Source: Escherichia phage K1F. From it: DNA of 39,704 nucleotides. The first letter of the stretch is position 1; every line of letters begins with the position of its first letter. The notes under the pieces were generated by a model, which was given only the letters and a program-made list of their open reading frames with translations, was not told where the DNA came from and did not search any database. The translations under genes and the position numbers were made by a program. The stretch lies in the sequence record NC_007456.1; one strand, written 5' to 3'. Below, in pieces: positions 8,504 through 10,935 of the stretch.

Positions 8504-8521
8504 ACTATCACTGTAGGACAG
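8499..8521 (+). promoter_or_regulatory. Phage RNAP promoter copy 4, variant (CCTAAACTATCACTGTA|GGACAG; G at -3)
   Basis: Consensus match except -3; overlaps gene 2 stop; upstream of SSB. Confidence 0.6.
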
Positions 8522-8623: not shown

Positions 8624-9259
8624 ATGGCTGACAAAGCAGACACCAAGTTTAACGAGCGTGGTGAGCATAAGGTTAACCTGACTTTCAGTCTGGATGACCC
8701 GAAGGTCCGTAAGATGATTGATGTCTTACAGAAGATTCACGACGATGCGTATGCGAAAGCACTTGCAGACCACGAGAAGAACCCACCTCAGGTTCAGCGT
8801 GGCAAGAAGCCTATTGAACCACGAGAAGGCGACATGCCGTGGATTGAGAATGGTGACGGTACTGTTACCATGAAGTTTAAATGCTTCGCGTCTTACCTGA
8901 AAGACGGCAAGTCCGAGCCTATCGTATTACGGTTCTACGACACCGATGCTAAACTCATCCGTGACGTCCCGAATATTGGCGCTGGCTCAAAGCTGAAGGT
9001 CAAGTTTAAAGTCCTGCCGTTTAAGTGGAACGCTGCGACTGGTGCAAGCGTTAAGCTCCAACTTGAGTCCTGCCTTCTGGTAGAACTGAAGGAGTGGAAA
9101 GGTGATGGTGCTGGTGGCGATGGTGGCTGGGGTGACGATGAAGACCTCGGTACTGGCTACAAAGCGTCAACCGATGGTGACTTCGGGTCTGATGACTTCG
9201 GTGACGATGGTTCCGAAGGTGGTGACGACTCCAACTCTGGTGGCGATTACGACTTCTAA
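8624..9259 (+). CDS. 2.5: Single-stranded DNA-binding protein (T7 gp2.5 homolog) with acidic C-terminal tail ending DYDF
   Basis: KVNLT...HEKNPP...RGKKPIEPREGDMPW...NGDGT...KFKCFASY...VKLQLESCLLVEL and acidic tail ...GGDYDF as in T7 (...DGDF). Confidence 0.9.
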   Translation: MADKADTKFNERGEHKVNLTFSLDDPKVRKMIDVLQKIHDDAYAKALADHEKNPPQVQRGKKPIEPREGDMPWIENGDGTVTMKFKCFASYLKDGKSEPIVLRFYDTDAKLIRDVPNIGAGSKLKVKFKVLPFKWNAATGASVKLQLESCLLVELKEWKGDGAGGDGGWGDDEDLGTGYKASTDGDFGSDDFGDDGSEGGDDSNSGGDYDF

Positions 9260-9711
9260 TGGCCCAATGGTCTGCAAAACGGGGGCACTCTGTGGGTGCC
9301 TACCGCTCTGGACTTGAAGCCAAGAACCAGCAGTGGCTGGAACAGAACGGCGTCAAAGCGGAGTACGAAAGCCATTATATCAACTATGTGATTCCGGCTT
9401 CCGACCACAAGTATACACCAGACTTTATCCTTCCTAACGGTATCATCGTGGAGACCAAAGGAATCTTCGCAGTGGAAGACCGTAAGAAGCACCTTATGGT
9501 ACGAGAACAGCACCCAGAGTTAGACATCCGGTTCGTGTTCTCAAGTTCCCGCTCCAAGTTATACAAAGGGTCTCCGACCACGTATGGCGCATGGTGCGAA
9601 AAGAACGGCTTTAAGTATGCCGATAAGTTCATCCCGGTTGAGTGGCTGCGAGAGACGACTGTACGTCTGCCTTCCGGCATTCTCATCCCAAAGAAAGGAG
9701 TTAAGAAATGA
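9259..9711 (+). CDS. 3: Endonuclease I, Holliday-junction resolvase (T7 gene 3 homolog)
   Basis: YRSGLE...YVIPAS.H.YTPDF.LPNGI.VETKG...DRKKHL.VREQHPELDIRFVFSSSRSKLYKGSPT.YG..CEK.G. Confidence 0.93.
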   Translation: MAQWSAKRGHSVGAYRSGLEAKNQQWLEQNGVKAEYESHYINYVIPASDHKYTPDFILPNGIIVETKGIFAVEDRKKHLMVREQHPELDIRFVFSSSRSKLYKGSPTTYGAWCEKNGFKYADKFIPVEWLRETTVRLPSGILIPKKGVKK

Positions 9712-10178
9712 GCAAGCAGTTTAAACTGTTAAGTGCTGAGTGTGGCTGGCCTTGTGGGACTATCGTTACCCAGTGTGAGAAGGACCCCCAGCCAGCGATA
9801 GGAATGATTCTAGTTGAGTGCCAGACTCCAGGCACCTACAAACACGGGTCTAAAGGCCACAATACGCAACCTGAGGGAATGTGGGGAGCGTGGGTCTGTA
9901 CTGAACGCCTTGAAGAAATCAAGACAGAAGAGAAACACCAAGTCCTGCCAACTTCGAGCGTACCTCCTGTGACTGTGAAGCGTGAAGTCCTGACAATCGA
10001 CAAGATTGGTGTGGGCCAGACGTTCATCGTCCACGGCAAGCCTGACGAAGTTTACGTGAAGATTAGCAACTCACACGTCTTCAACCATAAGCGTCTCCAG
10101 ATGCACACCACCGGACGCACAACGCTTCACCCAGCACATGAATCTAGTGGTCGTAGAATTGGTGGTGTACAATGGTAA
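9708..10178 (+). CDS. Hypothetical Cys-containing protein (156 aa) between genes 3 and 3.5
   Basis: ORF with AAGGAG SD, start overlaps gene 3 stop (ATGA); no T7 counterpart at this position. Confidence 0.6.
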   Translation: MSKQFKLLSAECGWPCGTIVTQCEKDPQPAIGMILVECQTPGTYKHGSKGHNTQPEGMWGAWVCTERLEEIKTEEKHQVLPTSSVPPVTVKREVLTIDKIGVGQTFIVHGKPDEVYVKISNSHVFNHKRLQMHTTGRTTLHPAHESSGRRIGGVQW

Positions 10179-10630
10179 GTAAGGTGCAATTCAACCCACG
10201 GTCCCGGACTGACGCTATCTTCGTTCACTGTTCGGCTACCAAGCCAGAGATGGACATCGGGGTAGAGACCATCCGTATGTGGCACAAGCAGCAGGCTTGG
10301 CTGGACGTAGGCTACCACTTTATCATCAAGCGTGATGGTACTGTGGAAGAGGGTCGCCCGGTAAATGTCGTAGGGTCACACGTTAAGGATTGGAACTCCC
10401 GGTCTGTAGGCGTCTGCCTTGTAGGTGGAATCAACGCTAAGGGTCAGTTTGAAGCTAACTTCACTCCAGCCCAGATGAACTCCCTGCGCAACAAGCTGGA
10501 TGACCTGAAGGTCATGTATCCTCAGGCAGAGATAAGAGCACACCATGACGTAGCACCAAAGGCGTGTCCAAGTTTCGACTTACAGCGCTGGCTGTCTACC
10601 AATGAACTGGTCACTTCCGACCGTGGTTAA
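10172..10630 (+). CDS. 3.5: N-acetylmuramoyl-L-alanine amidase / T7 lysozyme homolog (gene 3.5)
   Basis: VQF..R...DAIFVHCSATKP...WH..Q.WLDVGYHFIIKRDGTVE.GR...VGSH.KG.N..S.GVCLVGGI...AHHDVAPKACPSFDL.RW...ELVTSDRG. Confidence 0.93.
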   Translation: MVSKVQFNPRSRTDAIFVHCSATKPEMDIGVETIRMWHKQQAWLDVGYHFIIKRDGTVEEGRPVNVVGSHVKDWNSRSVGVCLVGGINAKGQFEANFTPAQMNSLRNKLDDLKVMYPQAEIRAHHDVAPKACPSFDLQRWLSTNELVTSDRG

Positions 10631-10654
10631 TAAACTCTAAGGGAGAACAACCCA

Positions 10655-10870
10655 ATGATTAAACTTATCGAATTTCTTGGTCGTCTGGTGGTGCGTGGTT
10701 ATCGTCGTGCTTCGGTACTGGAACGAAAGGTAGAAAAGAAGACTGCTGATGGTGCGGCTGATGCTGCTGCTCTGGCTGACAAGCTGACCATCGCGTCACT
10801 GGAAGCTGGCATGAAGGCTCGTCAGGCTGATACCAAAGCTGACCAGTTGGAGCAGTTCTTCAAAGACTAA
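10655..10870 (+). CDS. Hypothetical protein (71 aa), Ala-rich, likely helical
   Basis: ORF with GGGAGA SD after lysozyme gene. Confidence 0.55.
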   Translation: MIKLIEFLGRLVVRGYRRASVLERKVEKKTADGAADAAALADKLTIASLEAGMKARQADTKADQLEQFFKD

Positions 10871-10888
10871 ACTATCACCTTAGGGATG
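10866..10888 (+). promoter_or_regulatory. Degenerate phage promoter-like site (AACTATCACCTTA|GGGA; mismatches at -4 and -3)
   Basis: Shares the -13 to -5 block with the consensus; just upstream of gene 4. Confidence 0.35.
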
Positions 10889-10935
10889 GGACCATGAGTC
10901 CTGTCCCTCTGTTCGCATTTGTGATTAAGGAGTGA

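Follow-up and report, generated by a model that had tools for sequence, protein, structure and literature searches.

The open reading frame (ORF) between the endonuclease I and lysozyme genes in the window (the whole 39,704-nucleotide stretch analyzed here, record NC_007456.1) is gene 3.2 of coliphage K1F, a gene that is already annotated and placed in an existing PHROG family. Gene 3.2 is a hallmark of the genus Kayfunavirus as a whole and not a sporadic accessory gene. We tentatively read its product, gp3.2, as a non-enzymatic modular binding or adaptor protein (probability about 40%), whose C-terminal barrel would sit on a conserved target and whose N-terminal barrel would face a variable one.

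Megablast of positions 9200-10700 revealed 99.8% nucleotide identity to K1F (AM084414/NC_007636), a kayfunavirus, and matched 236 further phage records, mostly of Kayfunavirus; identity between the window and NC_007636 was 99.8-99.96% over the comparisons made. The NC_007636 annotation calls this ORF gene 3.2 ("gp3.2 protein") and places it between gene 3 (endonuclease) and gene 3.5 (amidase). The PHROG 16385 profile matches it over residues 1-156 (E 1.8e-89), and the ORF belongs to this family by profile and by genomic slot. PHROG 15211, a 74-aa family with the C-terminal module (C-module) only, matches gp3.2 residues 88-136. K1F gp3.2 (YP_424930), EcoDS1 gp3.2, CR44b gp3.01, and Dev2 gp3.2 are the same gene. 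The ORF has 257 homologs, and database entries across the family are all labelled "hypothetical" or "unknown function"; at the same position in relatives, no homolog with a known function was found. A literature search found no functional work on gp3.2 and no Kayfunavirus transcriptome or proteome.

A sequence-only reading had described a 156-aa ORF in this slot, preceded by an AAGGAG Shine-Dalgarno sequence, coupled to gene 3 by an ATGA junction, and without counterpart in T7. Most of this was borne out. The ORF listing contains the ATG-initiated ORF, AAGGAG lies at the expected place before the ATG (Table 1), and the ATG (9708-9710) shares bases with the TGA stop codon of gene 3 (9709-9711). 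In the T7 annotation, gene 3 ends and gene 3.5 starts at 10706. The ORF and its start are real, but its 3' end is frameshifted and the last 21 codons are artifactual.

Table 1. Features of the gene 3/gene 3.2/gene 3.5 locus and of related slots. Positions refer to the window unless another record is given.
Feature	Position	Strand	Remark
Nearest upstream phage-promoter-like site	8504-8519	+	Start of the unit with genes 2.5, 3, 3.2, 3.5, and 3.7
Gene 3 (endonuclease I)	9259-9711	+	Stop codon overlaps gene 3.2 start (ATGA)
Shine-Dalgarno sequence AAGGAG of gene 3.2	9695-9700	+	7 nt upstream of ATG; read from sequence
Gene 3.2 ORF as in the window, 156 aa	9708-10178	+	Only codons 1-135 in the family-consensus frame
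N-terminal domain, aa 1-72	9708-9923	+	Five-stranded SH3-like beta-barrel (predicted); fast evolving, hypervariable loops
Pro-rich linker, aa 73-90 (...QVLPTSSVPPVTVK)	9924-9977	+	Predicted disordered, pLDDT <50; alignments
C-terminal module, in-frame part, aa 91-135	9978-10112	+	Invariant Y..SNSH.F....Q.H.T; HMM 2-52; pN/pS 0.14
Single-base insertion	10111-10112	+	CC versus single C in the other K1F record and all relatives; alignment
Family-consensus gp3.2 tail DAQRFTQHMNLVVVELVVYNGK plus TAA	10114-10182	+	Adjacent frame; repaired translation, HMM
Gene 3.5 (amidase/lysozyme)	10172-10630	+	Gene 3.2, at its 3' end, contains the ribosome-binding site and start codon of gene 3.5
Next downstream phage promoter (site at 10871)	10867-10889	+	Identical to promoter annotated in EcoDS1
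Region with slot insert, Klebsiella phage vB_KpnP_BIS33	NC_047781, 10522-11550
Region with slot insert, Klebsiella phage KpV767	KX712070, 10406-11434
Region with slot insert, Yersinia phage YpsP-G	JQ965703, 8081-9110

The window copy differs from K1F YP_424930 by an extra C, which changes the last 21 residues. According to direct alignment, the window reads CACCA[C]CGG at 10111/10112; the bracketed C is not present in the other K1F deposit, nor in any of the 12 relatives compared. Even against K1F itself, tblastn alignments of the window gp3.2 fell into two pieces that differ in frame. Relative to the family, residues 136-156 of the window protein (GRTTLHPAHESSGRRIGGVQW) are out of frame: in the protein alignment, it ends with ...TTGRTTLHPAHESSGRRIGGVQW, as opposed to ...TTDAQRFTQH(L/M)NLVVVELVVYNGK in the other K1F record and in all relatives, so that the family tail ...DAQRFTQH(L/M)NLVVVELVVYNGK is not read in frame in the window ORF. 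Positions 2-52 of the C-module HMM match the called ORF, and positions 53-75 match the adjacent frame (E 1.1e-6). Indeed, dropping one C (single-C version of the site, ACCACGGAC) restores a 157-aa protein that ends with ...DAQRFTQHMNLVVVELVVYNGK, terminates at the stop codon 10180-10182, and is identical to YP_424930 (gp3.2 of NC_007636).

Genome-wide, 15 differences separate the window from NC_007636 (11 single-base indels and 4 substitutions). At the sites checked, the window version was the deviant one, with conserved features broken in genes 2.5, 4, and 3.5. Gene 2.5, which is essential in T7, has an internal stop (its ORF starts at 8624 and has 211 aa versus 232), the conserved ...NNDF end of gp4 is replaced by a 20-aa extension, and gp3.5 carries G42A. 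Since the extra C occurs in this deposit only and other indels of the set disrupt gene 2.5 and the gp4 end, it is almost certainly a sequencing or base-calling error of this sequence version. Programmed frameshifting to produce an alternative tail was ruled out on the same grounds. Differences from NC_007636 were noted near 2243/2258, 5698, 7856, 8610/8631, 10111, 10294/10297, 12631, and 15898. In view of the 11 indels, ORF-level findings near those sites call for caution.

To survey the slot between genes 3 and 3.5, we joined the last 300 nt of gene 3 to nt 12-311 of gene 3.5 (window 10183-10482) as a chimeric query, which matched 1,291 Studiervirinae records. In about 1,070 of them, including T7, the query aligned as a single piece of ~600 bp with 60-80% identity, i.e., the slot is empty. 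In about 220 Kayfunavirus-level records the slot is filled, and the query aligned in two pieces spanning either 828 bp, which corresponds to the 74-aa form, or about 1,044-1,074 bp, which corresponds to the long forms. Relative to T7, gene 3.2 is an extra gene, as had been proposed. A tblastn search with the gp3.2 protein yielded 218 records, only 52 of them with ≥80% coverage; in most records, the similarity is confined to residues 92-135. When 1.84 billion cluster representatives were searched exhaustively, only 15 clusters (50% identity) were returned, all with the gp3.2 phage module, and profile searches beyond those clusters added only a subgroup from Providencia phages. In this sister group (PSTCR2, MN855780), the C-module is about 44% identical to that of the main group, the gp3.2 homolog lies directly 3' of endonuclease I with a 4-nt overlap, and two to three extra small ORFs separate it from the amidase gene.

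Kayfunaviruses with gene 3.2 infect many Enterobacterales hosts. Two records with other host labels, MT350292 (Enterococcus phage EFA-1) and PV615262 (Acinetobacter phage vB_Aba_01KA), are 91-95% identical to the K1F-type locus, and their labels are probably due to host misassignment or contamination.

Further inserts were seen in this slot. In the Salmonella phage PRF-SP1 (locus L007, 1487-1936), a 149-aa ORF resembling HNH-type homing endonucleases lies between gene 3.2 and the amidase gene. In PRF-SP8, the halves of the chimeric query map to two separate positions of the record, consistent with an insertion of the PRF-SP1 type. In two loci of the MN855780-type Providencia-phage subgroup (L008, 4432-4990; L009, 4434-5138), two to three small ORFs of 49-116 aa precede the amidase gene; they have no Pfam matches and are not paralogs of either gp3.2 barrel. 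Non-Kayfunavirus Studiervirinae also carry inserts, of about 430 bp in BIS33, KpV767, and YpsP-G (Table 1) and of about 140 bp in Salmonella phage Ayanbimpe (PQ139365); in vB_KpnP_BIS33, the annotation includes a second "endonuclease". Homing endonucleases may insert into this slot recurrently.

Throughout the window, 11 phage-promoter-like sites with the pattern ACTATCAC(T/C)(A/T)TAGG.. were found, versus 0.3 expected by chance. These ACTATCACTATAGG-type sites are on the plus strand at 2479, 5557, 7188, 8504, 10871, 17182, 20003, 21002, 25326, 32602, and 38857; the site at 10871 is the variant CACCTTAGGGA, the same as the annotated EcoDS1 promoter. Between 8500 and 11200, there were no intrinsic-terminator-like sites, and the only two sigma-70-like matches, located inside genes 2.5 and 3.5, equal chance expectation; none belongs to gene 3.2. 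Since gene 3.2 has no promoter or terminator of its own, it is part of a unit with genes 2.5, 3, 3.5, and 3.7. It is cotranscribed and translationally coupled with endonuclease I, and by analogy to T7 we infer that it is a middle-period (class II) gene.

Selection was analyzed as nonsynonymous (pN) and synonymous (pS) divergence. For the C-terminal 68 codons of seven phages, pS was 0.07-0.66 and pN was 0.006-0.17. Mean values per segment among eight K1F-type phages were pS 0.159 and pN 0.020 for gene 3, pS 0.595 and pN 0.244 for the gene 3.2 N-domain, pS 0.527 and pN 0.121 for the linker, pS 0.352 and pN 0.049 for the C-module, and pS 0.316 and pN 0.043 for gene 3.5. Because pS is far above pN in both domains, gene 3.2 is coding, and we conclude that it is a real gene under purifying selection. 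The constraint on the C-module (pN/pS 0.14) equals that on the flanking enzymes (0.13-0.14 for genes 3 and 3.5), whereas the N-domain (0.41) changes its amino acids 5-12 times faster than the C-module and these enzymes. The raised pS of the N-domain (0.60) indicates allele exchange and deep coalescence; its pN/pS is overall below 1, and positive selection is not demonstrated by these ratios. A DNA-level cause for the conservation of the C-module was ruled out, since pS (0.24-0.66 in this comparison) greatly exceeds pN (0.006-0.17) and there is no promoter or terminator inside the gene.

As a separate observation, synonymous divergence of endonuclease I is unusually low (pS 0.16) compared to gene 3.5 (0.32), the C-module (0.35), and the N-domain (0.60), and across about 1.4 kb the gene 3/3.2/3.5 locus is a mosaic of coalescence depths. 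The low value of gene 3 could reflect a recent sweep, recombination, or added constraint (an internal 3B start, the 2.55 overlap).

These data bear on the proposal that the ORF is a moron-like accessory gene and, more broadly, on the views that it is a moron or a mobile insertion, or that the ORF is spurious or decaying and does nothing for the phage. Most Studiervirinae, T7 included, lack the gene, the window copy appears to carry a frameshift, and natural truncated or deleted alleles without the C-module exist (P0129, P0131, P0134). Given these alleles, gene 3.2 would seem dispensable, at least transiently, and the accessory part of the proposal holds to this extent. The moron-like part does not: the gene lacks a promoter and a terminator of its own and is fixed at the Kayfunavirus level (about 220 of about 220 records) and in the Providencia-phage sister group. 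Moreover, purifying selection on the C-module is strong (pN/pS 0.14, with pS up to 0.66), the protein has no homing-endonuclease or transposase motif, and the frameshift is one of 11 indels, a sequencing artifact. We reject the moron, mobile-element, and spurious-ORF readings as highly improbable on the selection and distribution data.

The absence of a recognizable motif, already noted from the sequence, was confirmed by wider searches. Searches of Pfam, NCBIfam, PADLOC, and PDB with the full protein, both domain profiles, and nine variants found nothing significant. For K1F gp3.2 and nine variant members, no Pfam match reached the gathering threshold or was better than E 0.076; the best PDB match, to a DM10-like stretch of CMF34/CARP4 (E 0.13), was treated as chance. 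Among curated families of defense-related proteins, searched with PADLOC, there was no match for K1F gp3.2 and only subthreshold noise for two variants. HNH, GIY-YIG, and LAGLIDADG motifs were not detected by Pfam or NCBIfam, nor was a transposase motif. Neither the rest of K1F, nor the T7 3-3.5 region, nor the extra ORFs of the Providencia-phage subgroup yielded a paralog of gp3.2.

The only hint in the sequence had been a series of Cys and His residues (CGWPCG...QCEKD...ECQTPG...C). K1F gp3.2 indeed has five Cys and several His residues within its N-terminal 65 residues, as a zinc-finger-like, metal-binding accessory protein might. However, in 20 diverse N-domains only C23 is invariant, while relatives freely substitute Tyr, Ala, Arg, Lys, Ser, Leu, or other residues for C12, C16, C38, and C64. 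As C23 is the sole invariant cysteine of those in K1F, short of the three to four ligands of a zinc finger, there is no metal-binding motif in the N-domain. Furthermore, this domain is confidently predicted as an SH3-like barrel without a metal site, and there is no Pfam zinc-finger match. The hint is not upheld; the nonconserved cysteines effectively refute a Cys-rich metal-binding protein, which we regard as very improbable.

AlphaFold2, run with a 39-sequence alignment, predicted N-domain residues 1-72 confidently (pLDDT about 92) with five strands; the linker came out disordered, and confidence in the C-terminal part was poor. The predicted N-domain superposes on known SH3-like domains as a five-stranded barrel. 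Its hypervariable positions (8-12, 16, 25, 28-33, 39, 43, 49, and 64-67) lie mainly in predicted loops, and mean entropy is 0.73 bits in the strands versus 1.44 bits elsewhere. The basic C-module is only tentatively predicted to be a small SH3-like beta-barrel, with a hydrophobic final strand. Its best structural neighbors include the RNA- or ribosome-binding barrels EF-P domain I, L2, eIF5A, and RimP. The near-invariant core of the C-module is Y..SNSH.F..Q.H.T..RF, and Y, SNSH, F, Q, H, T, and RF are invariant in both subgroups. The pI of the C-module is 8.5-10.1 in all variants, versus 4.5-8.9 for the N-domain, which is below 7 in six of eight variants. An internal duplication as the origin of the two barrels was rejected (hhalign probability 0.2%), and a BFVD structure search matched only gp3.2 family members and other uncharacterized phage proteins. 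The resemblance to the SH3-like fold, which is shared by eukaryotic SH3 domains and the bacterial SH3-like, Tudor, and KOW domains (EF-P domain I, FeoA, ribosomal L2, eIF5A), is one of fold only, with no sequence-level relationship to the Pfam SH3, KOW, and Tudor families, and no function was transferred from it.

The protein family is modular. A common linker and C-module follow at least seven unrelated N-terminal segments, the linker being conserved along with the C-module across the differing N-domain types, and the C-module also stands alone as a protein of 74-75 aa (SH4, Dev2). In a metagenomic protein of 226 aa (P0121), a K1F-type N-barrel, a Vec13-type segment, and the conserved C-module are arranged in series, which shows that N-terminal cassettes can be stacked.

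From this architecture we infer action by binding, a division of labor between the barrels, and a host-facing role. In the binding or adaptor reading, the 157-aa gp3.2 would present two unrelated small SH3-like barrels on a flexible Pro-rich linker, with no enzyme-family signature detected. The basic C-barrel, with its polar core, would dock on a partner shared by all phages of the genus and their hosts, which would be nucleic acid or a conserved DNA-metabolism protein. A conserved target is suggested because the gene is fixed genus-wide in phages of many Enterobacterales hosts. The N-barrel, with hypervariable loops and exchanged or lost between phages, would provide a variable host-facing specificity for takeover or counter-defense. 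The occurrence of the C-module behind at least seven unrelated N-segments, alone, or in a three-module form argues for this reading, as do the contrasts in rate and pI between the domains, the location of the hypervariable sites in predicted loops, and the lack of a match to any catalytic family in Pfam, NCBIfam, PADLOC, or PDB. Against it, narrow counter-defense genes mostly have a sporadic distribution, and fixation throughout a genus is atypical of them; a small catalytic, metal-binding, or ligand-binding site could just as well be formed by the invariant His, Ser, Asn, Thr, and Arg residues; and the N-domain pN/pS below 1 does not demonstrate positive selection.

Many of the small class II proteins of T7 (gp1.2, gp2, gp4.5, gp5.5, gp5.7, and gp5.9) bind host proteins stoichiometrically, which favors a binding or adaptor protein as a prior and not as a test. 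Like them, gp3.2 is small, is encoded in a DNA-metabolism neighborhood under phage promoters, has no enzymatic motif, and appears dispensable. Unlike them, it has two domains with a swappable N-domain, and it has no sequence or fold relationship to them.

In a more specific version of the binding reading, gp3.2 would serve endonuclease I (gp3) as a dedicated partner or regulator, kept at a fixed ratio by translational coupling. It would then bind the gp3 dimer or its branched-DNA substrate and tune the timing and specificity of junction resolution and host DNA breakdown. In line with this, the 3/3.2 ATGA junction is intact in every genome examined, including the distant subgroup with a 44% identical C-module, whereas the 3.2/3.5 junction was broken at least twice (by the HNH gene in PRF-SP1 and by two to three small ORFs in MN855780 and L009). 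The basic C-module is compatible with DNA binding, and the gene is fixed across the genus. However, a homologous endonuclease I serves about 1,070 other Studiervirinae that have no gene 3.2, alleles without the C-module (P0129, P0131, P0134) occur beside an intact gene 3, and a single ancestral insertion followed by vertical descent also explains the conserved adjacency. We consider a dedicated gp3 partner unlikely.

In a second such version, gp3.2 would be a small basic nucleic acid binder, functionally like the Sso7d, KOW, and Sm barrels. During replication and recombination, it would coat or bend phage DNA or bind RNA, and the N-domain would be an accessory that can be dispensed with. The stand-alone form of 74-75 aa with a pI of about 10, the RNA- and ribosome-binding barrels among the structural neighbors of the C-module, and the location of gene 3.2 among DNA-metabolism genes are in favor; the invariant Ser, Asn, His, Thr, and Arg residues would be typical of phosphate-backbone contacts. 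This, too, is unlikely in our judgment.

Beyond the binding or adaptor reading, gp3.2 could be the founding member of a modular class of phage host-interaction proteins, composed of an anchor barrel and a retargeting N-cassette; this is possible, if rather doubtful. The anchor would dock on the phage's own endonuclease I or DNA-metabolism complex or on a conserved host complex, and the N-barrel would retarget it to strain-variable host factors, e.g., defense proteins. Such roles would account for an N-domain that is exchanged among lineages and a C-module that stays frozen.

As a scan finding, gene 3.2 is ordinary and does not point to a new kind of system. The analysis adds the corrected C-terminus of gp3.2 and the single-base indel errors of this sequence version, a structural description of the protein as two unrelated small beta-barrels (predicted), one frozen and one swappable, and the recognition of gene 3.2 as a Kayfunavirus-wide hallmark. 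Kayfunaviruses, K1F among them, serve in therapy and as models against encapsulated E. coli and Salmonella Typhi. Because gene 3.2 is fixed in this genus and has an N-domain with an arms-race-like pattern, it is a reasonable candidate for targeted study.
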